64,000 nucleotides of DNA from Candidatus Latescibacterota bacterium (GCA_965206595.1 OZ242214.1:3392001-3456000), one strand, 5' to 3'. Positions 3,722-47,127 are shown, counted from the first letter of the stretch. Translations and numbers: made by a program. Notes: generated by a model from the sequence alone, not told the origin.

Positions 3722-4996
3722 CTAGTCTTCCGCCGCAGCCGAAGAGACGGCCCCCCCGGAAGGCCGCGCGGCGCCGAGCACCGGCGCCGCCGCGGCGCTG
3801 ACCACGGCGCCGAAGCCCATGCGCTGCCGGATCTCGGTGATCGCCCGCCCGAGCCGGCGCTGCCTGCGCTCGGCCTCCTCCTCGAACAGGTCGAGCTGTC
3901 CCGAATCCCTGCCCGGCCGGCTCGCCGAGACCCGGATCGACCTGATCGCCGCGCGGCGCTGGTGCAGACCGGTGAAGAGCGCCACCGCGGCCGCGGCGAC
4001 GGCGGCGAAGTCGTCGCTGGCCGCGGGCATGGAGTGCGTGCGCTGCGCGGTGCGATTGTCGGTATAGCGCAGCTGCAGCGTCAGCCGCGAGGCGACGTAC
4101 CCGGCCCGGCGCAGCTGGTCGACGAGCTTGTCCGCGGTCAGGCGCACGGCCTGGACCAGCGTGAACTCGTCGTTGACGTCGCGCTCGAGAGTGGTCTCGG
4201 CGACGACGGCGCGGCTGCCGTGCCGTCCCGGCGCGCCGTCGATGCCGCGCACCAGTCCGTACAGCTGCTCCCCGGCGGCTCCCCCGAAGCGCCTGTGCAG
4301 CGCCGGGCGCTCGAGCGCGAGAACCTGCGCGGCCTGGTGCAGGCCGTAGCGGCGAGCGGTCTCGCGCACTCCGGCGGGAAGCGGCAGCTCGTCCAGCTCC
4401 AGGTTCGCGAGCAGCTCCGCCTCCTGGTCCGGAGCGCAGACCTCAACGCCGTCCGGCCTGGCGCGCTCGGCCAGCAGCCCGGCCAGCAGGCGGCTGCGGC
4501 TGACCGCGGCGGCGATCTCCTGCAGCCCGGTGCGCCGCCGCAGGTGGCGGGCGAGGCGCTCCCCCAGCCCGGCCCGGTCGAGATCGCCCCGGTCGAGGGC
4601 GCGCTGCGCCGGCGTTCCGGAGAGGGCGAGCGTACAGCGGGCCAGCTCGTCCAGCCGGTAGTCCGGGGTCCAGGCCGCCAGGGCGGCGAGAAGCCGCTCG
4701 AGCACGCGCTGCTCCGCTTCCTCGTCCCGCTCGAAAACCAGCGCGCGCCGCCCCAGCCGGCGGCGCAGGACGAACACCGGCTCCCCCGGCGCGACCCCGA
4801 GCTCGCGGGCCGCCGGAGAACGGGCGAACACCGAGGCGCGGTGACTCTCCTGGTTCTGGCGCACGACGACGAACGCCTTGCCGAGCAGTTCGCGGCGCAC
4901 CGCGGCGACCGCCTGGGCGGCGAACTGGTCCGCGGCGACCGCCGCGAACAGCGGCTCGGGCCGGGGCCGGGCGGCCCTAGGGGCTGCGCGCGCCAT
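3722..4996 (-). CDS. imuB: Y-family DNA polymerase-like protein (ImuB/DinB-like), probably catalytically inactive
   Basis: IMS-like fold ('SPAARELGVAPG', little-finger 'LTLQLRYTD', clamp motif 'QLDLF'). Catalytic DMD and SIDE motifs are degenerate (AADQF; LARCTL). Directly downstream of dnaE2. Confidence 0.75.
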   Translation of the reverse strand: MARAAPRAARPRPEPLFAAVAADQFAAQAVAAVRRELLGKAFVVVRQNQESHRASVFARSPAARELGVAPGEPVFVLRRRLGRRALVFERDEEAEQRVLERLLAALAAWTPDYRLDELARCTLALSGTPAQRALDRGDLDRAGLGERLARHLRRRTGLQEIAAAVSRSRLLAGLLAERARPDGVEVCAPDQEAELLANLELDELPLPAGVRETARRYGLHQAAQVLALERPALHRRFGGAAGEQLYGLVRGIDGAPGRHGSRAVVAETTLERDVNDEFTLVQAVRLTADKLVDQLRRAGYVASRLTLQLRYTDNRTAQRTHSMPAASDDFAAVAAAAVALFTGLHQRRAAIRSIRVSASRPGRDSGQLDLFEEEAERRQRRLGRAITEIRQRMGFGAVVSAAAAPVLGAARPSGGAVSSAAAED

Positions 4997-4998
4997 TC

Positions 4999-7900
4999 CT
5001 AGGCGGCCGCCGTGGCCACGTCCCCATACCTGCGCACCCCTTCCACCGACTCAGCGAGCTTTCGCGACGCCAGCTCGAAATCGATCTCGTTCGGCGACCA
5101 GTCGACCGCCCTGATCGAGTCCGCCTCGACGGTGAACGTGCCCCAGTCCTCGGTGACCCGGCCCCGGACCTCGAACGGCCCCGGCCCCGCCACGACGTCG
5201 GTACAGCGCTCGAACACGTCGGGCCAGAGCACGACGTCGGCGCTCTCCGACTTGTCCTCGATGGTCAGGAACATCATCGCCTCGCCGCGGCGCTGAACCT
5301 GGTGGACGCGGTCGGTGACGCGGCGCCCGAACAGCTTGATCCGCCGGCCGGCGTGGCGCCCGATGTCGGCCGCCGGCACCGCCCCCGCGGCCGCCGGGTG
5401 CATGTCGAGGATCTCCAGGATCTCCCCCGAGATCATGTAGCCGAGCAGCTCGAGCTCGTTGAGGCACTTCTCGGCGAGGCTGTAGTCGCGCAGCCCCTCC
5501 GGCACCGGGGGGCGCAGGGCGAGGCCGTCGAGGAGCGGCGCCGCGGCGGACGCAGCGCCACCCCGCGCCGCGGCGACATCGTCGAGCTGCCACAGCAGCT
5601 CGGGCTGAGTGAGGCCGAAGCCGTCGAGCGCCCCGACGAGGATCAGGCGCTCGATCTCCTTCTTGTGCAGGCCGGGAACGCGGTGGGAGAAATCCGGCAG
5701 ATCGCGAAAGCGGCCGCCGGCCCGCCGCTCCGCGACGACCGCCTCGAGCGCCTTCTCCCGCACCCCGCGCAGGTGCATCATCCCGGGCCGCATCAGGGCG
5801 CCGCGGCCCCGGTACCTGACGCCGGACTCGTTGACGTCCGTCGGCAGGACGCGGATGCCCCAGCGCCGCGCTTCGTTGAGGTAGACGTCGCGGCGGTAGA
5901 AACCGTGGCCGTTGCTGATCACCGCGGCGAGGAACTGCGCCGGGAAATGGGCCTTGAGGTAGGCGCACTGGAACGACAGCTGCGCGTACGTGGCGCTGTG
6001 CGACTTGCAGAAGCTGAACCCCGTGAACGAGCTGACGCGCTTCCAGAGCTCGCGCGCCTGCTCCCCGGAGAGCCCGGCGTGGTCTCCGCAGCCCTGCAGG
6101 AAGGCGCGCTCCGTGGCCCTCCAGGTGCCGTCGTCGGGCGCTCCCTCGTGCTGGCTGTTCATCATCTTGCGGATCATGTCCGCCTGCCTGAAAGAAAGGC
6201 CGGCGACCTGGTGGCAGATCTTGGTCACGTCCTCCTGGAAGGCGCAGACATCGTGCGTCTCCCGCAGGATCGGCTCCAGCGCCGGGTGCACGAACTCCCA
6301 GTCCCTGATCCCCATCTTGCGTTTGCGCTCGCGCTCGACGTAGAGCTGCGTGTACGCCGAGCCGGCCGGGCGCACGAGACTGGAGGTGATCGCGATCTCC
6401 TCGAAGGTCTCGGCCTGCGCCTTCTGGTTGAGGCGCCGCTGCGCCGGGCTCTCGATGTAGAAGACCCCCTTGGTGCGGCCCTTGCGGATGATCTCCCTGA
6501 CCCGCGGCTCGGCGTAGCACTTCTCGAGGTCCCAGACCCCGGGGTCCTCGATCCCCTGCTCGTCGATCTGGGCCAGCGCGTCGCGCAGCACCGACAGCGA
6601 GCCGTTGCCGAGGATGTCGAACTTGATCAGCCCGAGATCGTCGATGCCGTTGTGCATGTCGATCTGGGTGACGGCGCGGTTCTTCGCGCCCCCGGAGGGC
6701 TCGCAGGCGACGTGGCGGCTGATCGGGCCGTTGGTGATCAGCACCCCGCCGGGATGCTGCCCGAGGTAGCGCGGCTTGCCCTCGAGACGCCGCGCCAGCT
6801 TCCACAGCATCGCGATCTCGCCGTCCTCGATGCGCTGCGTCCGCGTCTTGCGGCTCTCGAGAATGGCGGTGACCTGGTCGTCGGTGTAGCCGAACACCTT
6901 GGCCGTCTCGCGGAAGGCGGCGCGGGCGCGGAAGTGGATGGTCGTGCCGGTGACGGCGACGCGCTCCGCTCCCCAGCGGTCGACGATGAAATCGTACACC
7001 AGCTCGCGCTCGTCCCAGCCGAAGTCGAGGTCGGCGTCGGGAGGCGAGGCCCGGTCCTCGTTGAGGAAGCGCTGGAAGTAGAGGTCGTAGCGGATCGGGT
7101 CGAGGTCGCTGACCCCGATGTTGTAGAAGGTGATCGAGTTGGCGGCGCTGCCGCGCAGGATGGTGCAGTCCGCGGGCCGGCGGTAGCCGCCGCGGAAGCG
7201 CTCGTTGGCCCAGTCGCGAATCTCCTTGACGATCAGGAAATAGGAGGCGTAGCCGAGCTTGGCGATCACCTCGAGCTCCATCGCCTGGAGCTGCCGCGCC
7301 TTTTCGCGGACCGCCGCGGAGTGGCCGCCGTAGTTGGCCTCGAGGCCGTCGGCGGCGAGCTCGGCCAGGCGGCTTTCCGGGGTGTGCCCGGAAGGGACCG
7401 CGGCGCGCGGCATGATCCACCGGTTCAGCTCGAGCTCGACGTCGCAGCCGGCGGCGATCTCCCGCGTGTTGGCCAGGGCCTCGGGGCAGTCGGCGAACAG
7501 CTCCTCCATGCGCGCCGGCGAGGCGAGCACCGCGGCGCGCGGGGCCGCCTCTCCTGGGCGGAGCCTCGAGAGGGTCGAGTTGAGGCCGATCGCGGTGAGA
7601 ACGCGGTGGATCTGCCAGTCGCCGGGGTCGAGGAAGAAGCTGTCGTTCGACGCCGTCAGCGACAGGCCCAGGGAGCCGGCGGCAGCGGCGAGCTCGGCGC
7701 TGCGCGCCCTCGTGAAGGCCGAGTTGCGGACCAGCTCCCCGAAAAGGCGGCCGCGGTTCGGCCCCGCGGCCAGGACCCGCAGCACTCCGGGGTCGGCGGT
7801 CAGCAGGAACAGGTTCGGCCACGCGCGCGCGAAGGTGCGGGCGAAGGTGAAGTCCGCGGCGGCGAGGTGGCGGTCGCTGACGATCCGGCAGAGGTCGCCG

Positions 7901-8247
7901 TACCCTTCCGCGTTCCGGGCCAGCAGCAGGACCTTGGGCCACTGCGTCTTGCCCGCGGCGCCGCGCGCCCGGTGCGCCGGGACCGGAACGCCGGAAGCCC
8001 CGCCGCGGCCGCGAACCGGCTCCCGCTCACCGGGGTCCGGCTCGGTCAGCTCGACCCCGAGCAGCGGCTTGATCCCCGCCTTCCGGCACTCGAGGTAATG
8101 CAGGATCAGGCCGCTCATGCGGTCGGTGTCGGTGAGCGCCACGGCCGGCAGCCCCAGGCTCCCGGCTCTCTCCGCGATTTCCCCGACGCCGGGAACGCCG
8201 GCGTGGAAGGAGAACATCGAGTGGCAATGAAGGGGAGCGTAGGTCAC
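4999..8247 (-). CDS. dnaE2: error-prone DNA polymerase III alpha subunit (DnaE2-like)
   Basis: PHP domain (LHCHSMFS), RGSAANS, FQRFLNEDR..PPDADLDF, KFDILG, FCKSHSATYA, C-terminal OB fold. 1082 aa and paired with an ImuB-like gene. Confidence 0.9.
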   Translation of the reverse strand: MTYAPLHCHSMFSFHAGVPGVGEIAERAGSLGLPAVALTDTDRMSGLILHYLECRKAGIKPLLGVELTEPDPGEREPVRGRGGASGVPVPAHRARGAAGKTQWPKVLLLARNAEGYGDLCRIVSDRHLAAADFTFARTFARAWPNLFLLTADPGVLRVLAAGPNRGRLFGELVRNSAFTRARSAELAAAAGSLGLSLTASNDSFFLDPGDWQIHRVLTAIGLNSTLSRLRPGEAAPRAAVLASPARMEELFADCPEALANTREIAAGCDVELELNRWIMPRAAVPSGHTPESRLAELAADGLEANYGGHSAAVREKARQLQAMELEVIAKLGYASYFLIVKEIRDWANERFRGGYRRPADCTILRGSAANSITFYNIGVSDLDPIRYDLYFQRFLNEDRASPPDADLDFGWDERELVYDFIVDRWGAERVAVTGTTIHFRARAAFRETAKVFGYTDDQVTAILESRKTRTQRIEDGEIAMLWKLARRLEGKPRYLGQHPGGVLITNGPISRHVACEPSGGAKNRAVTQIDMHNGIDDLGLIKFDILGNGSLSVLRDALAQIDEQGIEDPGVWDLEKCYAEPRVREIIRKGRTKGVFYIESPAQRRLNQKAQAETFEEIAITSSLVRPAGSAYTQLYVERERKRKMGIRDWEFVHPALEPILRETHDVCAFQEDVTKICHQVAGLSFRQADMIRKMMNSQHEGAPDDGTWRATERAFLQGCGDHAGLSGEQARELWKRVSSFTGFSFCKSHSATYAQLSFQCAYLKAHFPAQFLAAVISNGHGFYRRDVYLNEARRWGIRVLPTDVNESGVRYRGRGALMRPGMMHLRGVREKALEAVVAERRAGGRFRDLPDFSHRVPGLHKKEIERLILVGALDGFGLTQPELLWQLDDVAAARGGAASAAAPLLDGLALRPPVPEGLRDYSLAEKCLNELELLGYMISGEILEILDMHPAAAGAVPAADIGRHAGRRIKLFGRRVTDRVHQVQRRGEAMMFLTIEDKSESADVVLWPDVFERCTDVVAGPGPFEVRGRVTEDWGTFTVEADSIRAVDWSPNEIDFELASRKLAESVEGVRRYGDVATAAA

Positions 8248-8293
8248 TTGATTCAGGTGGACGGGAAGAGGGGAGACGGCCGGTGACGGTCGA

Positions 8294-8322
8294 TTGACAC
8301 ATTAAGTGCACATATGTATAGT
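8294..8322 (+). promoter_or_regulatory. near-consensus sigma70 promoter facing the HD gene
   Basis: TTGACA (8294-8299), 17 bp, TATAGT (8317-8322). An opposing TTGACA on the minus strand at 8339-8344 faces dnaE2. Confidence 0.65.
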
Positions 8323-8525
8323 TGTCTCAGTGAGGCCGTGTCAACGGAAAAAACGGCCGCTTGGTAGTTTTGACGGAATCCCCCGCGTTGGATTTCCTTA
8401 CGATGCTTTGAAGGAGTACAGGGACTTTCTCCACACCCTGGGCAACGGAAAGAGCTTGTCGCGATGGATACCGTTACCGAGGTATTCGACTGCATTGGGC
8501 AGCACGGTAGACCATACGGAAGCTG

Positions 8526-9873
8526 ATGAGCGATAAAGAGACGCAACGCATCCGCGATCCGGTCCATGGTCTTATCGTGTTCGGTGGCGGGAACGACGCA
8601 CACCAGAACGAGACGGACCGAATCGCGTGGCGTCTGCTCAATACCCGGGAATTCCAGAGGCTGCGCCGGATTCGCCAGTTGGGCTTCTCCGACCTGGTAT
8701 ATCCCGGCGCGACACACAGCCGCCTGGCGCACGCCATCGGTGTCTATCACACCGCGCGCCGGCTCATCGAGGTGATTCGCCGACGGCAGGGGAAAACGCA
8801 CGAGGACAAGGAACGGGCGCGAGTCGTACTGTTGGCGACCCTGCTGCACGACATCGGACACGGACCCTTCAGTCACGTCTTCGAGCACGCGCCCTATGCC
8901 GCGAAACGCCATGAAGATTGGGGCGCGGAGATCGTCCAGGGCGAAACCGAGGTCAACCAGGTGTTGCGAGAAGTGGACGAAGTGTTGCCTGAGCACATCG
9001 GCGCGCTGCTGAAAGAGGAAATTCCCAAGGATTTCTACGCTACCGTTGTCTCCAGTCAGTTCGACGCCGACCGGCTCGATTACGTGCAGCGGGATCGCCT
9101 GATGACCGGAGTCGAGTTCGCGCATCTCGATTTTGACTGGCTGCTCGATTGCCTCGAGGTCGGAACGATCACTATCGATCAGGACGAGCCGGTCGAGGTG
9201 CCGTGCCTGTATCTCAATTTCAAGGGAGTGCAGGTGGCGGAGGAGTACCTGCAAGCGCGCTTTCGCCTCTACACAATGGGTCTACATGCACAAGACCACG
9301 CGGGCCGCGGAGAAGATGCTCGACGCTCTGCTGAAGACAGTTACGAAGGATTTGAGAAACTGCGAATTGGCGCGCCGGGATCCGATTTTACGCTACTTTA
9401 CGTCTGAATCGCCGTCGTTGGGTTCGTATCTCGATCTCGACGATGCCGCGGTTTGGGCAACCTTGGCGGCCCTTGCCGAATCACCATCACACCCACTGGC
9501 TTCGGATCTGGCACGCCGTCTGCGAGAGCGCCGTCTTTACAAATGCTTTGATATCGGTATACAGGACAGTTCAGGCGGCAATTTGTACAACCGCTTCAGG
9601 CGCAAATTGCGTGAAAGTCATACTGAGAAGTACAACACCCTTTTATTCGACGACGCGAAGATCGCGCTCTACAAATGGTACGACTTTGCAGATTCCTCGG
9701 TGCTTAATAAGGTTCTGGTAAAAACACGCGCCGAGGATCAAAAACCAAGGGACATTGCAGATGTATCGAGCATCGTCCCTGCGCTTCGAGAAGAGGAGCG
9801 GATTCAGAGGGTTTACGCGCCAGACCAGAACCAGATAGTAGAAGTCAGGCAAATAATGGAGGAGGTCGGATGA
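8526..9873 (+). CDS. HD-domain phosphohydrolase, SAMHD1/YwfO-like dNTP triphosphohydrolase (448 aa if corrected); +1 frameshift in GGG at 9278-9280
   Basis: IRDPVHG, FQRLRRIRQLG..YPGATHSR..H, LLHDIGHGPFSH, DADRLDY..RD. Removing one G gives ARFRLYTMVYMHKTTR and joins ORFs 8526..9407 and 9133..9873. Confidence 0.85.
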
Positions 9874-10406
9874 AGGCTGAAGACATCGTGGTCAATCTGA
9901 TCATATTGAATGGCGGCGAACTGATCGGCAGGACGCGGCTGCAGAAGGAGGCATATCTTCTGGACCGCTGCGGGGCAAAATTCGGGTTGTCGTTCACTTA
10001 CTACAACTACGGCCCTTACTCCTTCGAGCTGACCGATGGATGGGAGGACGCACGGGCCGAAGGTCGGATTGAGATCGACGAAGAGCCTGGCCGCTACGGT
10101 GTCCCGTATTCGATCTTCAAACTGAAGGAATCCGGCGGCGACCCGGACGACCTGGGTGACATGTCGGCTGCGGCTGCCCGTGCGCGGCTGAGTAAGATGG
10201 CGAGGGTTTCGGACATTGTTCTGGAGCTCGCCGCCACCATCGTCTATCTGAAGAAAGATTACCGCGAGCGGACCATCGAAGAGTTGAAAATTCGCAAACC
10301 TCTCAAGGCGACAGACCCCCTGATCAAAAAAGCCACCGATCTGCTGGACGACCTCGGATTGCCGACTGACGGTACCGAGGATTCTGCAGGACCGCTTACC
10401 CACTGA
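9870..10406 (+). CDS. YwgA / Panacea (DUF4065) / DarG C-terminal-like protein
   Basis: GRTRLQKEAYLL...FTYYNYGPYS...LELAATIVYL. ATGA overlap with the HD gene. Confidence 0.7.
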   Translation: MKAEDIVVNLIILNGGELIGRTRLQKEAYLLDRCGAKFGLSFTYYNYGPYSFELTDGWEDARAEGRIEIDEEPGRYGVPYSIFKLKESGGDPDDLGDMSAAAARARLSKMARVSDIVLELAATIVYLKKDYRERTIEELKIRKPLKATDPLIKKATDLLDDLGLPTDGTEDSAGPLTH

Positions 10407-10639
10407 GAGGACTTCATCCGGCCGGCGAACCTCTTCAGGGAGGCGGCATGGCCGGACTGGAGAGCTTCTACGATCCGACCACCTGGGATCAGGAGCGGCT
10501 CGGACGGCTGGGTCGCCATCCGAGGCCTATGCGCCGCGCCGGATTTCCGAAATGCCTTCCCTGCAGGTGAGATGAGGCAGCAAGACGTTTCCTGCTACTC
10601 ACGCCTTTGAGTATCTCACGAGCCCGAAACCCGAACCGA

Positions 10640-11845
10640 ATGATCCTTCCGCCTGCCCTTCTTCTGGCCGCGGCTCTCGCCGCCGCGGTTGCCGGGTGCA
10701 GCCACACCGCCCCGTACTACCGGGCCGATGTCGCCGCCGGGAGCGCCGGCCCGGCTCTGCCCGCAGAAGACCTCGCTTTCCGCGTAATCCTGATCGGCGA
10801 CGCCGGCGCCCCGGGTCCCGGGGAACCGGTGCTGGCGACCCTGAAGGCGTGGGCGCGCAGGGACTCCGACCGGACCCTGGTCGCCTTCCTGGGGGACAAC
10901 GTCTACGAGGACGGCTTCTCGGGGGCGGACCGGAGGGACGAGGAGCGCCGCCTCGACCGCCAGCTCGACGCCCTCGAAGGGTCACCCGGGCTGCGCGGGC
11001 TGTTCATCCCCGGCAACCACGACTGGGCCGGGGGCTCGGAAGCGGGGCTGGCAGCGGTGAAGGCGCAGCAGGCGTACGTCGAAGGCCGCCTGTCGCCGGG
11101 GAGCTTTCGGCCCCGGGACGGCCGCCCGGGGCCGGTGAAGATCGACCTGCCCGACTCCGCCGGCGCCGTGCTGCGGCTCGTCGCCATCGACACCCAGTGG
11201 TGGCTGCACGAGGAACCGCAGCCGGCCTCCGACCGGGACGGGTTCGTCGCCGGGCTCGTGCGCTGCCTGACGACGGACCTGCCGGTGGTGGTGCTCGCCC
11301 ATCACCCGCTGGAGTCCGCCGGCAACCACGGCGGCTTCTTCGACTGGCGCGACTACCTGTTCCCGGCGACCCGGGCCACCGATGCCCCGTGGGCCTGGCT
11401 GATCCCGGCGCCCCTGGTCTATCCGCTGGCGCGGAGGTTCACGCCGCTGGGGACGGAGCAGGACATCTTCGCGCCGGCCTACCGGGAGATGAAGGAGGAT
11501 CTCAAACGCGCCTCGCGGACGCGAGACGCCGACGGCAGTCTCCTCAAACCGCTCGCTTACGCCGCGGGGCACGACCACAACCTGCAGGTGATGGAGGGAG
11601 GGGAGTTCGCCGACTACCTCGTCGTCAGCGGCGCCGGATCGGCGGTGAAGGCGCGCCCCGTCGGCGACCGGCCGCAGACCCTGTTCGCCCACGAGCACCC
11701 CGGATTCATCCTCGTCGACGTGCTGGCCGACGGGTCGGTCTGGCTGCGGGTCGTCGAGCCCGTCTTCGACGAGGCGGGGCGGCAGCTCGATCCGGGAAGC
11801 GAGCCGGTGCTTTTCACCCTGCGGCTGCGGGCGGGGGAGCAGTAG
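10640..11845 (+). CDS. calcineurin-like metallophosphoesterase lipoprotein
   Basis: Lipobox VAGC; GDAG, GDNVY, GNHDW, HHP and GHDH motifs. Confidence 0.85.
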   Translation: MILPPALLLAAALAAAVAGCSHTAPYYRADVAAGSAGPALPAEDLAFRVILIGDAGAPGPGEPVLATLKAWARRDSDRTLVAFLGDNVYEDGFSGADRRDEERRLDRQLDALEGSPGLRGLFIPGNHDWAGGSEAGLAAVKAQQAYVEGRLSPGSFRPRDGRPGPVKIDLPDSAGAVLRLVAIDTQWWLHEEPQPASDRDGFVAGLVRCLTTDLPVVVLAHHPLESAGNHGGFFDWRDYLFPATRATDAPWAWLIPAPLVYPLARRFTPLGTEQDIFAPAYREMKEDLKRASRTRDADGSLLKPLAYAAGHDHNLQVMEGGEFADYLVVSGAGSAVKARPVGDRPQTLFAHEHPGFILVDVLADGSVWLRVVEPVFDEAGRQLDPGSEPVLFTLRLRAGEQ

Positions 11846-14172: not shown

Positions 14173-15383
14173 GTGGAGAGGGCGGCAGTCGCGAAGGGCT
14201 TGGTTTTGCGGGGGCTATTGCGGCAATGATTGAGTTCGTCTGAATTGAGGATTGAGGGTAGAAGACTGAATCGTGAGCACAGGACGTGGAAAATACTCGG
14301 CAGCCTCGTCTTCACTGGGCTACTTCTATCAGTGCCGGTACGCGCTGCTTGAGGCGTTGCGTCGTTTGTCCGAGGGCAACCCTATCAGCATCAGCATCGA
14401 GACGCTCGATGATGTCGTGTTCGAGACGGACGATTCTGCCGTCGAGGTTCTCCAGACCAAGCATCACATTAATGCTCATGCCAATCTTACCGACGCATCG
14501 CCTGATTTGTGGAAAACACTACGGATCTGGATAGAGGGACAATCTGACGGGAACATTCCCCAGGACGCCCGGTTCTTCCTCATCACTACGGCGGTGTGCA
14601 ACAACGGCACTGCGGCCGCCTATCTCCGCCCGGGGGTTCGGGACGAGAAGAAAGCGTTGGAACGTCTGGCCGCCGCGGCTTCCACGTCCACCAGTGAAAC
14701 CAATTCCCCGGCCTATCGGGCCTTTCGTTCACTGAAGGCGGAGGACCGCGAACTCCTTGTGACATCCATAACGGTCCTCGACGATTCGCCATCAATCGGC
14801 CAGTTGGACGACCAATTGCAACAGGCTGTGTTCTACGCTGTCGAGCGGCAGTTCCTGAGCTCTTACCTTCAGCGTCTCGAAGGTTGGTGGTTCGGACGAG
14901 TCGTGAAGCATCTCCTAGACGACAACGCACTCCCGATAATCGGTGAGGAACTTGAGGCGGAAGCAAGCCGCATTCGGGAGCAGTTCAAAGAAGACAATCT
15001 TCCCATTGACGACGACATCATGTGGGCGACCGTTGACGCGAGCGGGTATATGGGAAGGACCTTTGTGGAGCAGCTCAATCTGATTGACGTAAATCAAGAC
15101 AGAGTGGTCCACGCTATCAGGAACTACTACCGAGCCTTTGAGCAGCGTTCCCGCTGGGTGCGCGAGGATCTCTTATATGTGGGGGACCTTGAACGCTACG
15201 AGGAGCAGCTAATCGAGGAGTGGGACCTCATATTCCAGCAGATGCGCGACGCGCTTGGCGAGGACGCTGCCGAAGAGGCAAAAATCCGTGCTGCACAGGA
15301 TCTCTATAAGTGGGTGGAGACGGGGGGTACACACCGTGTGATCAAGCCCGCTGTCACGGAGCCTGCCATTGCCCGCGGAACGT

Positions 15384-16237
15384 GAACCTATCTCAAAATA
15401 GGCAAACTTAAACTTGTTTTCGAAATGACAGTGATGTACCATTGGTGTATGGTCAACCTGACCGACATGCAATGGCAACGAATCCGCCATCACTTTCCTG
15501 AAGAACTTCGTCCCAAGAGCCATCCGGGTCGCAAACCGGTTTGCACCCGTGATGTTTTTGAAGCCGTCCTTTGGATTCTAAACACCGGGGCTCAATGGCA
15601 TATGTTGCCGCCGTGCTATCCGAACTACAAAACCGTGCATCGCCGTTTTCAAAACGGGTGTCGTCAAGGGGTGGTACGCGAAGTTCTCATGGACTTGGCC
15701 CAGACACTTCACGAGCAAGGGGGCCTGGACGAATCGGAGGCTTTCATCGACGGCATGTTCTCGGCGGCCAAGGGTGGAGGTGCCGATATCGGCCACACCA
15801 GGCGAGGTAAGGGGGTGCGGGTCATGGGGATCGTGGACGGCAATGGGCCTCCCTTGTCGGTGAGCACGCATGCAGCGAACCATCATGAAGTGACGCTGGT
15901 TCAGTTGACCTTTGACTTTTACCTCATCGAAGACCAACCTGACAACTTGATCGGCGACAAGGCGTACGACAGCGATTCGTTGGATGAAGAGCTTAAGAAA
16001 GACGGGATCGAGATGATCGCCCCGCATCGCCAGAATCGGACCAAGAAAAAGACTCAGGACGGACGGCGATTGCGGCGTTATGTGCGGCGTTGGATGGTTG
16101 AGAGATTCTTTGCTTGGCTTCAATGGCAGCGTCGAGTGATCACTCGCTGGGAATTGTATCCGGAGAATTTTCTTGGCTTCGTCCAACTTGCATCCATTTT
16201 GATTTTGCTTAAACAATTTCAATTTTGAGATAGGTTC
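15384..16237 (+). mobile_element. IS5-family element, 854 bp
   Basis: Perfect 16-bp terminal IRs GAACCTATCTCAAAAT / ATTTTGAGATAGGTTC; 2-bp GT duplication. Confidence 0.92.
15449..16228 (+). CDS. IS5-family transposase
   Basis: LTDMQW, TGAQWHMLP..YP.YKTVHRRF, IDG, GDKAYDS, RWMVERFFAWL. Confidence 0.92.
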   Translation: MVNLTDMQWQRIRHHFPEELRPKSHPGRKPVCTRDVFEAVLWILNTGAQWHMLPPCYPNYKTVHRRFQNGCRQGVVREVLMDLAQTLHEQGGLDESEAFIDGMFSAAKGGGADIGHTRRGKGVRVMGIVDGNGPPLSVSTHAANHHEVTLVQLTFDFYLIEDQPDNLIGDKAYDSDSLDEELKKDGIEMIAPHRQNRTKKKTQDGRRLRRYVRRWMVERFFAWLQWQRRVITRWELYPENFLGFVQLASILILLKQFQF

Positions 16238-16330
16238 GTACCAGATGCTGGCGGACGATCTCCGCGTCGGATGGCATCTGGAATTCTGCAAACGTCTCCT
16301 GGCTCTTCTGGCAGGAACGGAGGCCAGCCG

Positions 16331-16837
16331 ATGAAACCGTGGGCAGAACGAACTCGTGAAGAAGCGTACCTGCTGAACCCCGCCTTCTGCTGCGCGACCA
16401 TCACCTCGGCGTGTGCTGGCTACGGTGAATCAAGTGATCAATCGTTGCCGTTCGCTTTGGCTTTTTTGGCTTTCATGGTCCTTCCAATCACTTTGCACAA
16501 ATACACGAGGGGGTCTCTACCCCGCACTATACGCACCTCAATACCCGCCTGGTTGCAGGAGCATCCCGAAGCTAGGCTTGGATTCCATGAACGACTTATG
16601 GCACTACAACCCCACACCCGAGAGTCTATACGCTATGGACTGGCCTTCGACTGGATTGCTATGGGTAACTCAGGGGGCATCCGATGCGTTGCTACGAACG
16701 CGTTAATTAACCGGACGATCCAGTCGCTGGACGGAGATGCCCGAGACTGTGTGTCCCGCGCTCGATTCTTGGGCAGATGGCTCGGCAACACGGCTTCTGC
16801 AGAAACAACTATGGCACTTTGGGGGATTCGCCCTTGA
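16331..16837 (+). CDS. lmuC: Lamassu/ABC-3C middle component
   Basis: [25 protein letters not shown], 'GRWLG...LWGIRP' end; sits between the effector and the ATPase. Confidence 0.8.
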
Positions 16838-18810
16838 GCTTTCAGATCAGAGACATAGTCCTCTATGGACACAACGGTGAGATGCGACGACTGGAGTTTG
16901 CTCCCGGCAGGCTCAACATCATCACCGGGGCGTCCAAGACGGGCAAGACGGCGCTAATTGCGATTATCGAATACTGCTTCGGTTCCACCGAGTGCCAAAT
17001 CCCAGATGGCATCATGCGTCGCGCTGTCGCCTGGGCAGGTGTGAGGCTGGCGGTTCCGGAGGGAGATGTCTTTATCGCTAGACGCCTTCCCGCTCCAGGG
17101 CGTAATTCGTCGTTCGAGGTTCACTACACCGTGGGAAGCCAAATCGCTTTGCCGGGCACGGATCAGCTCATGCAGACGACCAACCCGGAAAGTCTCCAAG
17201 GATTGCTTGCAGCCCACGCGGGAATTAGACAGAACCGCCATGACCCCCCTCATGGACAGACACGCCCTCCCTTGCAGGCCGGAATTGCCCATGCGCTGAT
17301 CTACTGCTTCCAGCATCAGACGGAGATTGACAGCAATCGACACCTGTTTCACAGGCAAAGTGAACAATGGCTGCCGCAGGCTATTAAGGACACGATGCCC
17401 TATTTCCTCGGGGCCGTAACTGACGAGTATGTGGCGCGCATGGACGAGCTGCGCCGTCTCCGCCGCGAACTTCAAAGAAGCCGGCGCAAACTGGAAGAAT
17501 ATGAGGCGGTAAGAGGGCAGGGCGTCACCGTGGCACAGGGGCTTCTTGCGGAGGCAACTGACCTCGGTTTGGTCACCGGCCTGTCCTCCCCTGAAACGTG
17601 GGAGGCCTGTCTCGAAGCACTCCGGAGGCTTGCAAATTACGGTGCGAGGTCTATCCTGGAGGAAGAAGAGGTTGCGGCCGAAGGGGATGAGTTCCGTCGG
17701 CTACAGGAGGAACGAGACGAGATCACACACGAGCTTCGCATCGTCCGAGATCAGCTTGACGCTTCAAAAGCACTGACTGCCGACCGCCACGGATTCTCAC
17801 AGGAAGCACAGGCCCAGAGCCTCCGTCTGAAAAGCATTGCGCTGTTTACCTCCCATGACGACCATGAACACAGTAGGACCAGTTGCCCGTTGTGTCAGTC
17901 CTCGCTTCCAAGCAGTGAAGTAACTCCCTCTGTCCAGGAAATCCAAGACTCGCTGGAAAGGCTCGACGACCAGATTCGTCAGGTCGAGGATCGGACTCCG
18001 CAAATGGAGGCAGTCGTGGGTTCGCTTGAAGCCAAGCAGGCCGATATCAAGTCTCGTCTGCGGGACAACCGGGAGAAACTCGAAGCAATCCAACGGGGAA
18101 ACGCCAGGCTGCAGGAGTACAGAGACCGCAACGCCAGAAGGGCCCACATCTCCGGCAGAATCAGCCTGTACCTCGAGAGTGTCCCTCACCTTGATGACGG
18201 CAGTGACTTGCAGCGACAGATTGCCGATCTGCAGGCACAGGTAACCAGACTGGAAGAGGAATTGAGCGACGATGCGGTTCAGGAACGCGTTCAATCGGCG
18301 CTGTCGATCATCTCCCGTAACATGAGCGGTTGGGCTTCGCAACTCGAACTCGAACACGCGGAATTCCCGCTACGCTTGGATCTCCGGCGGCTAACCGTGG
18401 TTGCCGACGGCACCGATGGCCCGATCCCGATGGAGCGCATGGGAAGCGGCGAGAACTGGGTTGGGTATCATCTCATCGCACACTTCGGACTGCACCGCTG
18501 GTTTGTCGAACGGCACCGTCCTGTCCCGGGTTTCATCTTCATTGACCAGCCATCCCAGGTCTACTTCCCGGAAGACGAGGACTGGCAGCGGCAGGGAAAT
18601 GGGACGGTGGAAATAGGCGAGGACAGGGAGAAAGTGAGGCGCATGTACCGATTAGCCCACGATTTTGTGCAGGGCCTCAACGGGCAGTTTCAGGTGATTG
18701 TTACGGACCACGCGAATATCAACGAACCGTGGTTTCAAGACTGTGTGGTTGAGCGCTGGCGAGAAGGAAGGAAATTGATACCACCTGAATGGGACGCTAT
18801 CCCTGAATGA
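16834..18810 (+). CDS. lmuB: Lamassu SMC/Rad50-like ABC ATPase (DUF3732-type)
   Basis: Walker A GASKTGKT, coiled coils with zinc-hook CPLC, signature GSGENW, Walker [22 protein letters not shown] start overlaps the lmuC stop. Confidence 0.88.
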
Positions 18811-18905: not shown

Positions 18906-21900
18906 ATGAATCAGAGCACCTCGGTCTATAATGCATTGCAGAACTTTGCCGCCGCGGTGACAGCCAAAATGACCCAGGTCACCCTTGGCGAGCCCGAGGA
19001 CCAAGTGCGCGGTCCGTTCGAAATCTTCATGGCCGCTACCGCCCGCGCTTTCGGCTGGGAAGTCGTCTGCACCGGTGAAACTTCCCTTCCGGACCGACTC
19101 GGCCGCCCGGATTACGCCGTTCATCGCAACCAGTTGCTCGCCGGATATGTCGAGCTCAAGGCCCCTGGCACCGGGGCGACAGCCACCCGTTTCAGAGGCC
19201 GCAACCGCGATCAGTTCAAGCGCTTCTCTGCTACGCCCAACATCCTCTACACGGATGGCAACGAGTGGGCGCTCTACCGCAACGGCGATCTGATCGACAA
19301 GGTCGTTCGACTGGGAGGCGATGTCGCCGCTGACGGCAGGAAGGCCGCCGCGTTCCAGGACGCCCGGGCCGTCGAGCGTCTCTTGCGCGATTTCCTCTCT
19401 TGGGAACCGATCATTCCCAGGGACCGCAACGGCAAGATCGACCTCAGGGGATTCGCCGCGCTGCTGGCGCCTCTGTGCCGCATGTTGCGCGACGACGTGA
19501 CGGACGCGCTCAAAGACCCGGCGTCTCCGCTCGTGCAGCTTGCGGAAGACTGGCGGCAATTGCTCTTCCCGGATGCCTCGGACGAGCAATTCGCCGACGC
19601 GTACGCCCAGACTGTGACCTTTGCCTTGCTGCTAGGCCGAAGCGAAGGAGCCGATCCGCTTACCCTAGATAGCGCCGAGACGGCCCTCGCCGTCCAGCAC
19701 AACCTGCTGTCGCGGGCACTACAAGTGCTGACGGACCCCGGCGCGCGTGCCGATATCGCCGCTTCCCTCGACCTGCTGCTGCGCGTGATCGATGTCGTGA
19801 CGCCGGCCACGCTCACCGGTCCCGAGGATCCCTGGCTCTATTTCTACGAAGACTTCCTCGCGGTCTACGATCCCAGGCTGCGCAAGGACGCCGGGGCCTA
19901 CTACACCCCGGTCGAGGTCGTCCGCGCCCAGGTGCGCCTGATCGACGATCTGCTCGTCCGCCGTCTCGGCAAACCGCTCGGTTTCGCCGATCCCGGCGTC
20001 GTCACGCTCGATCCCGCCGTGGGAACCGGAACCTATCTGCTCGGCGTCATCGAACACGCCCTCGGCCGCGTCAAAGAAGAGCAAGGCGCCGGAGCGGTCG
20101 CCGGACAAGCCACCGCGCTGGCTCAAAATCTCTACGGTTTCGAGCTACTGGTCGGCCCTTACGCGGTGAGCGAGCTGCGTGTCAGCCGTGCCCTGCGCGA
20201 TGACGGCGCGGCACTGCCCGCCGACGGTACGCACATCTACCTGACCGACACCCTCGAAAGCCCCGACGCGGAACCTCCGCAGATGCCGTTCATTCTGCGG
20301 CCCATCGCCGAGCAACACAGAAAGGCGCTCGCAATCAAGAGCGCGGTCCCGGTCATCGTCTGCCTGGGCAATCCCCCCTACGACCGGCACGATGCGGTGG
20401 ATACGGAAAACGAGGCCAATCTTTCCCAGTATGGCGGATGGGTTCGATTCGGTGACCCTTTGCCTGACAACGTGGTCAAGGATAGAAGGGGCAGAGACAG
20501 GGAGCTCAGGACCGCCGAGGCCAGGCTGGAAAGAAGACAGCAACTCGCTATTCTGAAGGATTTCCTCGACCCTGCCACCGCCGCCGGCCACGGCGTCCAC
20601 GTCAAGAACCTCTACAACCTCTACGTCTATTTCTGGCGCTGGGCGCTGTGGAAGGTCTTCGAGCACGAGACCGCCAGCGGTCCCGGCATCGTCAGCTTCA
20701 TCAGCGCCTCGAGCTACCTCGACGGCGACGCTTTCTCTGGAATGCGCGAACACATACGTCGGCAGTGCGACGAAATCTGGATCCTCGATCTCGGAGGCGA
20801 GGGACGCGGCACGCGCCAGGATGACAATGTCTTTGCGATCCAGACGCCCGTCGCCATTTCCGTGGCTTTCCGTGCGAAGGAGGCGGAAACAGATAAACCC
20901 GCGAAAGTTCACCATGCCCGCATCGAGGGGACGCGCGCTGAGAAACTCGCCGTGCTTGACGCTGTCGAGGGCTTTGCGAATACGAAAGTGAAATGGCAGG
21001 ATTGCCCGGACGCTTGGCAGGCTCCGTTTCGCCCGGCGGGCAAGGGGCATTACTTCGATTGGCCGTTGCTTACTGATCTGATGCCGTGGCAGCATTCGGG
21101 TGTGCAACTCAAACGGACTTGGCCGATTGCACCGGACGCGGAAGTACTGGAGCATCGTTGGCGCAGTCTGCTAAATGCTGAGGATAGATCAAAGGCATTC
21201 CGCGAAACCGGAGACCGTACTGTCGATGGGACGTATCGCGTCGCCCTAACAGAGCGGAGCGACTCGACGCCGATCACCGAACTGCCCGACAGCACCTCCA
21301 TTCCGGAAGTGCAGCAATACGCTTATCGCTCTTTAGACCGCCATTACATCATCGTGGACGGGCGCTTAATGTCCCGTCCGCGCCCCGACCTGTGGCGCGC
21401 CCACGGCGAACGGCAGGTGTATTTGACGAGCCTGCTCAACCATCCGCTCGGTGATGGGCCTGCGGCAACGGCCTGCTCGCACCTTCCCGATCTCCACCAT
21501 TTCCGTGGATCGTACGGGGCAAAAGAGGTCTTCCCCCTCTATCGCACCGCCGACGCTTCGCAGGCGAACATTATCCCTGGCCTGCTCGAAATCCTTGCCA
21601 CAGAATACGAGCGCAACGTCACCCCCGAAGATTTCCTCGGCTACATTTACGGCGTAATAGCCCAACCACCCTTCACAACACGGTTTAAAACCGAACTGGG
21701 AACTCGTGAACTACGCGTACCAATCACAAAGGATGTCGAACTGTTCGAGCAAATCCTTGAGGCGGGTTCACTCCTTCTGTGGCTCCACACCTACGGGGAG
21801 CGTTTCATCCCCACCGGACAGACGCGCGGTCGTGTTCCGCTCGGTGCAGCTAAGTGCGTCAAGGCCGTTCCCGGTGACGCCGACGACTATCCAGAGGCAT

Positions 21901-22298
21901 TCGCTTACAACGACGCGACCCGGACGCTTCGCGTCGGCGAAGGCGAGTTCGCACCCGTCGCACCCGAGGTTTACGAATTCGAGGTCTCCGGCCTCAAGAT
22001 CCTGCAGTCCTGGCTCAAGTACCGCATGAAGAAAGGGGCCGGCAAGAAATCCTCGCCCCTTGACGACATCCGTCCCGAACGCTGGACTAGCCAGTTCACC
22101 ACTGAACTACTGGATTTGCTCCGGGTGCTGGAGGCGACGTTGAAGTGCTACCCCGAACAGTCGCGGCTGCTCAAAGCCGTCGTCGCGAGCGACTGCTTCC
22201 GAGCCGACGAACTACCGCGGGTTCCGGAGGTAATGCGCAAGCCGCCCAAGACACAGACCATCAATAGCGGCTTGTTTGACACGGAGTACGGCCTTTAA
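18906..22298 (+). CDS. single-chain restriction-modification enzyme (type IIG/ISP-like without helicase): nuclease, N6-adenine MTase, target recognition domain
   Basis: RPDY...YVELK nuclease motif, GAYYTP, DPAVGTG (motif I), GNPPY (motif IV), long C-terminal specificity region. Confidence 0.88.
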   Translation: MNQSTSVYNALQNFAAAVTAKMTQVTLGEPEDQVRGPFEIFMAATARAFGWEVVCTGETSLPDRLGRPDYAVHRNQLLAGYVELKAPGTGATATRFRGRNRDQFKRFSATPNILYTDGNEWALYRNGDLIDKVVRLGGDVAADGRKAAAFQDARAVERLLRDFLSWEPIIPRDRNGKIDLRGFAALLAPLCRMLRDDVTDALKDPASPLVQLAEDWRQLLFPDASDEQFADAYAQTVTFALLLGRSEGADPLTLDSAETALAVQHNLLSRALQVLTDPGARADIAASLDLLLRVIDVVTPATLTGPEDPWLYFYEDFLAVYDPRLRKDAGAYYTPVEVVRAQVRLIDDLLVRRLGKPLGFADPGVVTLDPAVGTGTYLLGVIEHALGRVKEEQGAGAVAGQATALAQNLYGFELLVGPYAVSELRVSRALRDDGAALPADGTHIYLTDTLESPDAEPPQMPFILRPIAEQHRKALAIKSAVPVIVCLGNPPYDRHDAVDTENEANLSQYGGWVRFGDPLPDNVVKDRRGRDRELRTAEARLERRQQLAILKDFLDPATAAGHGVHVKNLYNLYVYFWRWALWKVFEHETASGPGIVSFISASSYLDGDAFSGMREHIRRQCDEIWILDLGGEGRGTRQDDNVFAIQTPVAISVAFRAKEAETDKPAKVHHARIEGTRAEKLAVLDAVEGFANTKVKWQDCPDAWQAPFRPAGKGHYFDWPLLTDLMPWQHSGVQLKRTWPIAPDAEVLEHRWRSLLNAEDRSKAFRETGDRTVDGTYRVALTERSDSTPITELPDSTSIPEVQQYAYRSLDRHYIIVDGRLMSRPRPDLWRAHGERQVYLTSLLNHPLGDGPAATACSHLPDLHHFRGSYGAKEVFPLYRTADASQANIIPGLLEILATEYERNVTPEDFLGYIYGVIAQPPFTTRFKTELGTRELRVPITKDVELFEQILEAGSLLLWLHTYGERFIPTGQTRGRVPLGAAKCVKAVPGDADDYPEAFAYNDATRTLRVGEGEFAPVAPEVYEFEVSGLKILQSWLKYRMKKGAGKKSSPLDDIRPERWTSQFTTELLDLLRVLEATLKCYPEQSRLLKAVVASDCFRADELPRVPEVMRKPPKTQTINSGLFDTEYGL

Positions 22299-25182: not shown

Positions 25183-26445
25183 TTATTTTTTTGCCGCTCT
25201 ATTCCCGATAATTTTCCGCTTCGAGGCGGCCTTCTTTTTCTTCGGCGTCGCTTTCCTGGAGGCCGCTTTCTTTCCGGCGGCTTTTTTCGACGCAGCCTTC
25301 GTTACAGCGACCTTTCTCTTCAACGCCGCTTTCTTTACGGACGCTTTCTTCTTCGACGTCGTTTTCTTTGCAGCGACCTTCTTCTTTAGTGCTGCTTTCT
25401 TTCCGGCGGTTTTCTTCTTCAATGGGGCCTTCTTCAATGCCGCTTTTTTCCCGACAGTCTTCTTCTTCGACGCCGGCTTCTTTATGGAGGCCTTCCTCTT
25501 CAATGGGGCCTTCGTCAGCGCGGCTTTCTTTTTCGACCCCGCTTTCTTTCCGGCAACCTTCTTCTTCGCTGCGGCTTTCTTTCCAGCGGCTTTCTTCTTC
25601 AATACCGCCTTTTTCCCGGCCACCTTCTTTTTTGACGCCGTTTTCTTCCCGCCTGCCTTTTTCTTCGATGCCTTTCTTCCCGCAGCCTTCCTCTTCTCCA
25701 CCTCTTCTGCTGCCGGGGCGGGGTCTTCCGCGGCGGTGTCGATATCGATCCCGAAGACCGACGACAGATCGTCCGAGGCCAGCACCCGGCCCCTGGGCGC
25801 GCCAGCCCCGGGCTGCTGCTGGACTGCGGCTTCCACCATCTCCAAGGGATCGACCCCTCTCAGGGTGAACAGCTTCTCGGGCTCGTGATCGAGGCGCGCG
25901 CCGACCCCGTAGAGGGCGGCCGCCACGTGCTTGCACATCACTGCCCAGTCCGGGCAGGAGCAGCTCAGGGCAATCTCCCCGGGCGACGGGAACAGCCCCT
26001 CTCCCGGGCGGGTAACGACCTCCATCACCCCCTTGGAGAGGGAGCCGCGCAACAGCTCCACCAGGGAGTCGATCTCCCCCGCGCTGCGCCCCTTCACCTC
26101 GGTCCATCGCCCCTGGGGCAGAGGCTGGATCCGGATGTCGACGCGGTACAGATCCGTGCCCATGACGAGCGCCTGCACGCGCCCGGTTTCGACGCTCAGG
26201 TGGATGACGGACCCGTTGCGCACGTATGTGCGGCCGCGGGGCAGGCGATTGGCGAAATCGCTGTACGCCTCGAGGTTGTCGCACCACGCCTGGCCCCAGA
26301 AGGTGGCGGCGATCCTGCGCCCCTCGATCTCCACCGGCTCGACCTCCTGTCCGACCTTCATGACCGCGGCGATCGTCTTCGCAGTCTTGCGGCGGCGCTT
26401 GGCCACCGGCACGTGGGGCCGCCATCCATGGCGGTACCTGCTCAT
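25183..26445 (-). CDS. SWIM zinc-finger protein with Lys/Ala-rich histone-H1-like tail
   Basis: NRLPRGRTYVR, CSCPDWAVMCKHVAA; last ~170 aa are KKKAAGKKA-type repeats. Confidence 0.88.
   Translation of the reverse strand: MSRYRHGWRPHVPVAKRRRKTAKTIAAVMKVGQEVEPVEIEGRRIAATFWGQAWCDNLEAYSDFANRLPRGRTYVRNGSVIHLSVETGRVQALVMGTDLYRVDIRIQPLPQGRWTEVKGRSAGEIDSLVELLRGSLSKGVMEVVTRPGEGLFPSPGEIALSCSCPDWAVMCKHVAAALYGVGARLDHEPEKLFTLRGVDPLEMVEAAVQQQPGAGAPRGRVLASDDLSSVFGIDIDTAAEDPAPAAEEVEKRKAAGRKASKKKAGGKKTASKKKVAGKKAVLKKKAAGKKAAAKKKVAGKKAGSKKKAALTKAPLKRKASIKKPASKKKTVGKKAALKKAPLKKKTAGKKAALKKKVAAKKTTSKKKASVKKAALKRKVAVTKAASKKAAGKKAASRKATPKKKKAASKRKIIGNRAAKK
25186..25696 (-). repeat. low-complexity Lys/Ala repeat tail
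   Basis: Degenerate ~11-aa units such as KKKVAGKKAVL, KKKAAGKKAAA, KKKTAGKKAAL. Confidence 0.85.
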
Positions 26446-26706
26446 CGATTCCTCCTCCAGGTTTCAGTCTTCACGGCACGCCCCGGCGTTTTCCGGAACG
26501 TGCAAGCGGGGTCCGCCCTTCGCAGCCGCGGAAATCCCCGTTACAGCGGATTACCCGCACCGGTCCGCCAGCGGCCTCCTTCGCAGGGAGGATCCCCCCC
26601 CCTGTCCACGGCGGGGCCCTTGCCCCACTGCTTCACGGCAGATGCGAAAACCCACACGAGCTGCGGTGCACCCGGTAAGCCGCTGCACGCCGTCCCTGCT
26701 GCAGGC

Positions 26707-46486: not shown

Positions 46487-46825
46487 ATGACCGAGGCGGT
46501 TCCAAACGATCTCGAGGTCTACCAGACAGAGGAAGGCCGCTCCCCTTTTTCGGAGTGGATTCACCGACTCGAAGACTGCGCCGCCAGAGCCCGAATTCGC
46601 GCTCGACTGGCGCGGTTACGGCTGGGAAACTTTGGTGACACCAACTCTCTCGGAGACGGTCTCCAAGAGCTGCGCATCCCCTACGGCCCGGGCTACCGTG
46701 TCTATTTCGGCCGGGCGGGTACCCGCCTTGTTTTATTACTTTGCGGCGGCACCAAGAGGACACAGTCACGGGACATTGAACAAGCGAGGTCATACTGGCG
46801 CGACTACAGGAGAAGGTCGTCATGA
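46487..46825 (+). CDS. RelE/ParE-like addiction module toxin
   Basis: PFSEW...RLRLGNFGD...ELRIPYGPGYRVYF...LLCGGTKRTQSRDI. Confidence 0.9.
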   Translation: MTEAVPNDLEVYQTEEGRSPFSEWIHRLEDCAARARIRARLARLRLGNFGDTNSLGDGLQELRIPYGPGYRVYFGRAGTRLVLLLCGGTKRTQSRDIEQARSYWRDYRRRSS

Positions 46826-47127
46826 ACAAAACATCTCGGTCCTACAAAGAAGAACTGCTGGAGGATCTCCGGGACCCCGGCGAAGCCGCCGAGTATCTGA
46901 CCGCTGCTCTCGAGGATGACTCCCCCGCCGTGTTTCTCCTCGCACTGCGCGACGTAGCCGAAGCCCACGGAATGAAGCGGTTGGCAGAGGGAGCCCGGCT
47001 CAACCGGGAGTCGATGTATCGCATGCTGTCCGATCAGGGCAATCCCCAGCTCTTCAGTTTGACCGCCGTCCTTCAGGAACTGGGTTTGCGCCTTGCAGTT
47101 GAAGTCAGCGATCCTGTTGCTGCCTGA
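46822..47127 (+). CDS. HTH addiction module antidote
   Basis: AAEYL, ALRDVAEAHGM, LNRESMYRMLS..GNP; ATGA overlap with the toxin gene. Confidence 0.9.
   Translation: MNKTSRSYKEELLEDLRDPGEAAEYLTAALEDDSPAVFLLALRDVAEAHGMKRLAEGARLNRESMYRMLSDQGNPQLFSLTAVLQELGLRLAVEVSDPVAA

Follow-up and report, generated by a model that had tools for sequence, protein, structure and literature searches.

To our knowledge, the bacterial defences known to work by depleting deoxynucleoside triphosphates (dNTPs) use enzymes of the dGTPase subfamily. The tetrameric dNTPases EF1143 of Enterococcus faecalis and SAMHD1 (PDB 2O6I, 3IRH, 4LRL) form another branch of HD-domain enzymes, and EF1143 is described, in the relevant part of its report, as a tetramer requiring dGTP as activator in Mg2+ (PMC3190883). 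Sections of a review that cover the anti-phage dGTPase and dCTP deaminase (Tal et al. 2022) also raise possible unrecognised defence roles of other SAMHD1-like bacterial proteins (PMC13276650). Among regulatory domains, the C-terminal domain of DarG is reported to block DarT by direct binding, mimicking single-stranded DNA (ssDNA) (PMC11481870, in part), and a passage in PMC13621843 treats DUF4065 (Panacea/SocA, PF13274) as its homologue. For the Bacillales gene pair ywfO-ywgA, no functional paper was found in the ywgA/ywfO and COG3465/COG1078 literature, supplements and most subscription papers being outside the scope of this search; YwfO's role is merely guessed at in the pertinent text of PMC4993169, and the corresponding text of PMC9503650 holds nothing relevant to the pair. 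Here we analysed a 64,000-nucleotide stretch from a Candidatus Latescibacterota bacterium (GCA_965206595.1 OZ242214.1:3392001-3456000; hereafter the window), which at positions 8294–10406 carries an HD dNTPase gene (gene 1) followed by a gene for a small partner protein (gene 2), and which a sequence-only reading had put forward as a candidate toxin-antitoxin (TA) or defence system. The pair is already known from databases as ywfO-ywgA-like; new are the assignment of the gene 2 family to the DarG C-terminal-domain fold, the form of the cassette embedded in restriction-modification (RM) operons, and evidence that the partner is optional.

Sequence and structural model both place gene 1 (8526–9873, plus strand) among the EF1143/SAMHD1-type enzymes, with dNTPase activity predicted, and the SAMHD1/YwfO-type motifs recognised earlier were thus confirmed. 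Its best solved relative is EF1143 (E 2.5e-49; about 28% identity), and the AlphaFold model of the intact orthologue from another genus (G020; pLDDT 89.7) gave TM scores of 0.77–0.80 to EF1143 and about 0.7 to SAMHD1. The enzyme family shares with EF1143 the fold, the H...HD...D metal site, the His-Glu dyad, the deoxyribose residues and the dGTP site. H69, H108, D109, D182, H112, E120, H129, Q51, H64, R66, D190 and Y254 were invariant or almost so in 33 rows, and the catalytic residue set minus E120 was also checked in 16 further copies. The dGTP-site residues N39, Q44, R47, R336 and K340 are present (EF1143 set N36, Q41, R44, F64, R326, K330), the equivalent of EF1143 Phe-64 being Leu67 in the window and in G020, unlike EF1143 itself, and Phe in most relatives. 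The metal, catalytic and activator residues named in the part of PMC3190883 concerned map to conserved positions here. In contrast to EF1143, the window copy is frameshifted, and its clade is mobile and nearly always accompanied by a coupled partner gene. The anti-phage dGTPases share with this enzyme the (here predicted) depletion of dNTPs by an HD enzyme, but they belong to another subfamily (NF041026: 23.5 bits against a cut-off of 400), and this cassette has two genes.

Gene 2 (9870–10406, plus strand) is intact and encodes a 178-residue YwgA-like protein in which the motifs LQK..YL, YGPYS and LEL.AT, picked out by the sequence-only reading, proved conserved in a 55-row alignment. Its model (pLDDT 92.3) shows the winged-helix-based fold of the DarG C-terminal domain, as that reading had also suspected. 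The sole two Foldseek matches at E<0.001 were DarG C-terminal-domain chains (E 8.5e-4), and VIA-align matched the whole domain (PDB 7YK3) with Z 12.5 over 151 residues at an rmsd of 3.3, the next chain reaching 6.5; DarG profile matches were weak and covered only model positions 177–298. Unlike DarTG, gene 2 has no macrodomain and no DarT neighbour, the upstream gene being the HD enzyme. Its likeness to YwgA also held: the gene following the HD gene in a Priestia pair is homologous to gene 2 (HHalign 97.7%, E 1.9e-12), which supports the comparison with ywfO-ywgA, and the gene order is the same, with the enzymes 31% identical. We take the Priestia genes to be ywfO and ywgA, the pair having been identified by its position between a DUF1450 gene and tautomerase/ywhD genes; two homologues carry the JGI label 'uncharacterized protein YwgA'.

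Membership of Panacea, by contrast with the other likenesses proposed, was not borne out. No Pfam family matched gene 2, and PF13274 matched 0 of 90 homologues at E<=0.05 (88 of the 150 listed plus two paralogues); the partner family is large, comprising 3,091 representatives at E<=0.001. A GP-type signature near the central helix is present: G48 and P49 are invariant and Y50 nearly so, the model places strands 43–45 and 48–50 after helix 21–36, and GPY here resembles the GPV given as the Panacea signature in a passage of PMC8832971. In one atlas cluster, at 0.91, 13% of the members were PF13274. The most fitting description of gene 2 is that of a stand-alone protein belonging distantly to the DarG-C-terminal/Panacea fold group, and not to Pfam Panacea.

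The window copy of gene 1 is a pseudogene. It carries one extra G at 9278–9280 relative to the G020 orthologue, an intact 449-residue open reading frame with 96% identity over the N-terminal part; the 5' frame terminates at 9407, and Pfam finds HD in the 5' part and HD_assoc_2 in the 3' part in differing frames. Four sequencing runs were compared, X1 and X3 being one sample, possibly the window's source, and X4 belonging to another study. Short-read contigs of X1 and X3 matched 9050–10800 with 0 gaps, extra G included. X4 yielded one contig (9050–9308, 0 gaps) with the extra base and a minor contig without it, and X6 lacked the extra G and had a different 1-nt deletion at 8951. An assembly artefact was rejected and the frameshift regarded as real, because short-read contigs share the extra base; a frame problem mentioned earlier in passing was therefore a true break. 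The two genes do have the same orientation, an ATGA overlap at 9870–9873 and a ribosome site GGAGGAGG ahead of gene 2, as expected of the translationally coupled pair proposed before, but coupling is impossible in this copy because gene 1 is frameshifted. At the same site in a congener (G001), gene 1 has a deletion of about 420 bp and gene 2 has insertions. The locus is decaying in the window's lineage, with a broken gene 1 next to an intact partner, and the window copy of the cassette is likely dead, leaving an orphan partner.

Scanning GTDB genomes with an alignment of gene 2 yielded 110 confirmed stretches, from which 78 loci were kept (79 with the window), patchily distributed over six phyla (Latescibacterota, Pseudomonadota, Acidobacteriota, Spirochaetota, Rhodothermales and Chloroflexota). 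An enzyme gene lies directly upstream of the gene 2 homologue in 70 of the 78 (tblastn), and the 4-base overlap is seen in 33 of the 46 pairs that were scored as intact. In a FastTree phylogeny of 157 enzymes, whose long branches limit the deep forks, the window's enzyme belongs to a clade of 66 rows (support 100); 63 of these are paired, two lie at contig edges and one is a pair split by an insertion sequence (IS), and many other YwfO-like clades are solo. Within the phylum, close copies were found in 11 of 168 genomes, same-family genomes carrying the title Candidatus Latescibacterota, and in other groups in 13/78, 3/251, 3/201 and 2/251 genomes. Besides the window copy, its own genome has a further two pairs, more distantly related, and a separate solo HD gene that nearly all relatives also keep (40 of the 41 genomes with a match). 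Searches of IMG/VR, PLSDB and INPHARED for phage or plasmid carriage gave no match to gene 2. The only plasmid match of the enzyme examined outside Bacillales was in Labrenzia/Roseibium (L260:3788-7407), where a related HD gene sits in an operon of radical SAM, 3'-5' exonuclease, AAA ATPase and HD genes, with no partner gene annotated after it.

Whether the partner is needed was addressed with two sets of loci. The gene-2-first set of 79 contained 48 intact pairs, 22 loci scored as a broken enzyme with an intact partner (19 after subtracting three contig edges), four without an enzyme, two with both genes broken and three edge cases; an intact enzyme beside a broken partner was found at none of these 79 loci. 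This set is biased toward intact partners, and therefore whole genomes were searched with the enzyme. The resulting enzyme-first set, which overlaps the first, comprised 34 loci after removal of two duplicate pieces: 21 intact pairs, three broken enzymes, one locus with both genes broken, and nine intact enzymes without a partner (eight called by script and one on inspection). All nine retain all 25 checked residues, and a genome-wide search found no partner homologue in eight of the nine genomes, the assemblies of which may be incomplete. Seven of the nine belong to a single alphaproteobacterial group whose congeners keep the pair; at these loci (L213, L216–L221) the HD gene lies directly upstream of an rRNA operon, and across the group some species retain the partner and others have lost it by clean deletion. 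Among the seven solo enzymes dN/dS was 0.20–0.39, compared with 0.06–0.17 among four pairs, and GC3 was 0.86–0.94, compared with 0.72–0.80 in paired copies of the same group. Since intact solo enzymes are under purifying selection, the enzyme is tolerated and kept alone, contradicting a lethal toxin, and the proposal of an obligately toxic dNTPase held by an antitoxin was not supported. The cassette is probably not a classic TA pair. Positions T216, N353, T259 and E407 relax in partner-less copies (T216 in eight and N353 in six of the nine), which does no more than hint at an interface that was lost.

A recurrent feature of the intact relatives is their position within RM operons. RM genes lie on both sides within 600 bp in 22 of the 79 loci (14 as hsdM-pair-hsdS, in type I operons, and eight as mod-pair-res, in type III operons). 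A further 11 loci have them on one side only, and in three of these the pair follows a type IIG/DrmMI-like methyltransferase. With the same queries, 20,000 points placed at random in the window's own genome gave a background of 1.0% and 2.1%. The enrichment is overstated, because these same loci supplied the queries and the cases go back to about three insertion events. Duplicated RM gene ends flank the pair in four of four loci, picked for showing RM fragments (hsdM 3' end, 169 bp at 97% and 197 bp at 79%; res 5' end, 36 and 29 bp), and the arrangement therefore looks like the insertion of a cassette. Thus, the neighbourhood analysis that the sequence-only reading had named as a check revealed a patchy, mobile distribution linked to RM operons. 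The link is not obligate. Following a single HD gene, L078:9977-13233 carries, twice in tandem, the partner gene along with a portion of hsdS.

Some variant and paralogous loci were also observed. The partner precedes the HD gene in two metagenome loci (L158:7419-9311 and L186:7390-9260). At G000:C1:4872667-4874527 (L024), the third pair of the window's own genome (G000), the HD gene is split into two frames (311 and 149 residues) beside an intact partner, and the orthologue in G001 (L026) is a single 426-residue frame. A distant paralogous HD-plus-partner pair at G000:C1:4623262-4626085 (L025) is intact in the same genome, with a DUF5131 gene and a LexA-type box ahead of it; both other loci of its clade also have an upstream box, at 332 bp in L028 and, near-perfect, at 55 bp in L031. 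Judging from these boxes, the paralogous clade may be natively regulated by the SOS response.

In the window, the cassette forms part of an inserted low-GC segment of about 2.3 kb (8359–10638, plus strand). In another genome of the same genus (G002), the flanking genes adjoin with nothing inserted; blastn similarity to this empty site stops at 8358 and restarts at about 10639. The flanks are a DnaE2-type polymerase III alpha gene on the left (4999–8247, minus strand), which is also present at the empty site and is followed by an ImuB-like gene (3722–4996, minus strand), and on the right a calcineurin-like metallophosphoesterase gene native to the locus (10639–11845, plus strand). The module had been described as less GC-rich than its surroundings, and the measured values agree: 57.4% in the insert (8382–10638) versus 70.7% in dnaE2 and 72.8% in the metallophosphoesterase gene. 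Downstream of gene 2, local DNA alignment detected a remnant of a type III restriction (res) gene, its decayed 5' end (10439–10608, plus strand), with scores of 81, 77, 69, 43 and 54 to the res starts of L039, L041, L045, L046 and L047, matched in 0 of 300 shuffles for each of the five. By its sequence, this fragment is a relic of the RM operon from which the cassette came. A mod-gene relic sought in the leader was not significant, 29–150 of 300 shuffles scoring as high. The cassette is horizontally acquired. Similarity between the window and G020 is limited to about 8240–11500, at roughly 90% identity. This suggests that the transfer was recent and took place before gene 1 broke.

The sigma-70-like promoter recognised by the sequence-only reading (TTGACA-17-TATAGT; 8294–8322, plus strand) does match the consensus at 11 of 12 positions, and a scan with a looser rule found one site versus 0.6 +/- 0.9 in shuffles. 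It is not the module's own, however: a similar site is found in G002, which has no module, and since the shared intergenic DNA extends to about 8358, the promoter is assigned by sequence to the native dnaE2/metallophosphoesterase intergenic region, outside the insert, from where it would drive the inserted genes. A 14-bp imperfect palindrome (8307–8320) overlaps both this promoter and the divergent dnaE2 promoter and is a LexA-type box, presumably an SOS operator. Two ideas were rejected, namely that the promoter is part of the module and that the palindrome serves gene 2 as its operator, since the site is present where the module is absent and, in relatives, stands ahead of dnaE2. The palindrome is kept upstream of dnaE2 in most of 14 loci and resembles boxes upstream of lexA and recA. 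A first matrix, built from lexA, recA and the relatives' dnaE2 sites, also picked a site before a gene that we take from its N-terminal sequence to be ssb-like; when only the sites of lexA, recA and ssb went into the matrix, the window site ranked 19th of 7.05 million positions, a rank that is partly circular because the ssb site came from the first matrix. SOS control of the cassette would thus arise here from its landing site, so that the DNA-damage link suggested earlier has a LexA-type box in its support and, in the window's clade, exists only through the insertion site. The candidate LexA box of this Latescibacterota lineage reads approximately TRWAC-N4-GTKCA; sites at G000:C1:164970, 1570135, 3624875, 3400307, 4623262 and 3956824 precede lexA, ssb, recA, dnaE2, the DUF5131 gene and a DNA methyltransferase gene.

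Taken at somewhat less than even confidence, our preferred reading is that the intact relatives are an accessory anti-phage cassette that drains dNTPs, with a partner that binds and dampens the enzyme. By analogy with EF1143, the enzyme would be a dGTP-activated tetramer splitting dNTPs into nucleoside and triphosphate; such dependence on dGTP would make it self-limiting and hence tolerated alone. The partner, as the DarG C-terminal domain and Panacea suggest, would bind the enzyme directly and lower its resting activity, and infection might remove or displace it, so that loss of dNTPs would stall phage replication. The cassette itself would travel as cargo of RM operons, independently of the RM enzymes. 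A more specific version, which we consider unlikely, is that this is the SAMHD1-subfamily anti-phage system of bacteria, in which an EF1143-type dNTPase is gated by a stand-alone DarG-C-terminal-domain protein, moves as an excisable cassette in adenine-methylating RM operons (types I, III and IIG/DISARM-like) and fires when restriction fails. The trigger might then be loss of the partner, its displacement by ssDNA, or methylated nucleotides from degraded DNA. The latter two ideas are leads only: SAMHD1 reportedly binds ssDNA, and the idea of methylated nucleotides takes its cue from bioRxiv 2026.01.15.699771.

Several observations weigh against the preferred reading. With an intact enzyme and no partner at 9 of the 34 enzyme-first loci, and at least four partner losses implied by the tree, the partner is dispensable; its inhibitory role would be drawn purely by analogy of fold. 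Gene 2 served as the query for the gene-2-first set, so the decay asymmetry seen there is biased. Partner charge is not conserved (pI 4.8–9.3 over 44 proteins), which weakens a reading of the partner as a DNA mimic. No RM gene occurs within 600 bp in 46 of the 79 loci, and the enrichment of the remainder is inflated as described. Several deep-branching members are located among housekeeping genes such as parC, anmK, rpoC and rnd, and the Bacillales pair has a core-like neighbourhood, unlike this patchy and often RM-embedded clade. PADLOC, another check named by the sequence-only reading, gave no strong match, and neither did any NCBIfam defence model (PADLOC input for the neighbourhoods: cluster representatives within 3 kb only, 289 of 306); its dGTPase model scored gene 1 at 29.8 bits over 99 residues only.

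The main rival is a non-defence explanation that we hold to be possible, if rather doubtful: a helper of the nucleotide pool or of DNA-damage responses, whose enzyme trims or sanitises dNTPs with the partner as an optional regulatory subunit, the RM association reflecting hitchhiking at a cassette hotspot. The core-like Priestia neighbourhood, as a possible parallel in ywfO-ywgA, and the housekeeping neighbours of deep members would fit such a role, as would the partner-less copies upstream of the rRNA operon, with their purifying selection and high GC3, and the LexA-type boxes upstream of the window copy and in all three loci of the distant paralogous clade. It accounts poorly for the very patchy distribution with cross-phylum transfer, the frequent loss of the enzyme gene, the separate solo HD gene already kept in the own genome and nearly all relatives, and the recurrent association with three unrelated RM types. 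A classic type II TA or addiction module, with an enzyme lethal alone and neutralised by gene 2, appears improbable. The overlapping bicistron (window and most intact pairs), the antitoxin-domain fold of gene 2 and the decay seen in the gene-2-first set, with 23 orphan partners but not one broken partner next to an intact enzyme, would suit it. Set against these are the eight genomes with a fully conserved intact enzyme and no partner homologue found, the order with the larger gene first, and the dGTP activation in Mg2+ that EF1143 requires. Moreover, the main text of two Panacea papers names no HD partner (PMC10440598, PMC8832971), and 'HD domain' or 'phosphohydrolase' did not occur in the text of the NetFlax and Panacea papers, the supplementary toxin-cluster tables of which could list an HD partner.

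The remaining two alternatives concern what the pair responds to and what gene 2 does. The position that some of the loci take inside type I RM operons resembles that of PrrC and Ronin, RM-linked abortive effectors, and the pair could be caged by, or monitor, an RM complex and fire when a phage anti-restriction protein blocks it. Precedents are given in the available portion of bioRxiv 2023.04.06.535777, and the location between hsdM and hsdS or mod and res, together with an enzyme that is intact at 26 of 33 loci linked to RM genes and at 22 of 40 without such a link (Fisher p 0.047, although the loci are not independent), would be consistent with such a guard. We nevertheless regard it as quite improbable, as intact pairs occur beside truncated RM genes (L041, L044, L045, L050) or without any within 600 bp (22 loci), and broken enzymes lie between full-length RM genes (L039, L072). 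Unlike Ronin homologues, which the same portion of that preprint describes as always RM-linked, this cassette also occurs in type III and type IIG/DISARM-like loci and outside RM operons, and its predicted effector is a dNTPase. Gene 2 might instead be a PadR-like winged-helix transcription regulator of the cassette that does not touch the enzyme; its N-terminal part of about 100 residues matches winged-helix proteins (Z 5–6.5), and PadR matches reach E 0.03–0.08. The whole-length match to the DarG C-terminal domain is far higher, comparison of the window's leader with other contexts showed no common upstream element, and many pairs lie mid-operon behind an RM gene, so this regulator role is hardly credible.

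Elsewhere in the window, a Lamassu/ABC-three-component system (LmuA, LmuC, LmuB; 14273–18810) has an IS5-family transposase inserted close to the 3' end of lmuA and is followed by a type IIG/ISP-like restriction-methyltransferase of 1130 residues (18906–22298). A pathway link between the cassette and these genes, 4–12 kb downstream, was considered and set aside: there was no evidence for it, and native genes intervene. A SWIM/SNF2 cassette (25186–29091, minus strand) and, further on, an addiction-module antidote gene (46822–47124), a HicB-like gene (50521–50946) and a 3134-residue open reading frame (52346–61747, minus strand) are also present.

Because it is a pseudogene, the window copy adds little by itself. 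The pair is closer to SAMHD1 and EF1143 than to the dGTPase defences, and PADLOC assigns it to no system. Cultured Methylocystis borbori (L099) and Caldovatus aquaticus (L114) carry intact copies, which makes the pair directly testable. If the SAMHD1-subfamily system outlined above were true, it would provide a function for the unstudied ywfO-ywgA pair and extend the DarG/Panacea fold to nucleotide-degrading enzymes. The pair could also reveal whether the DarG C-terminal/Panacea fold regulates enzymes other than lethal toxins.

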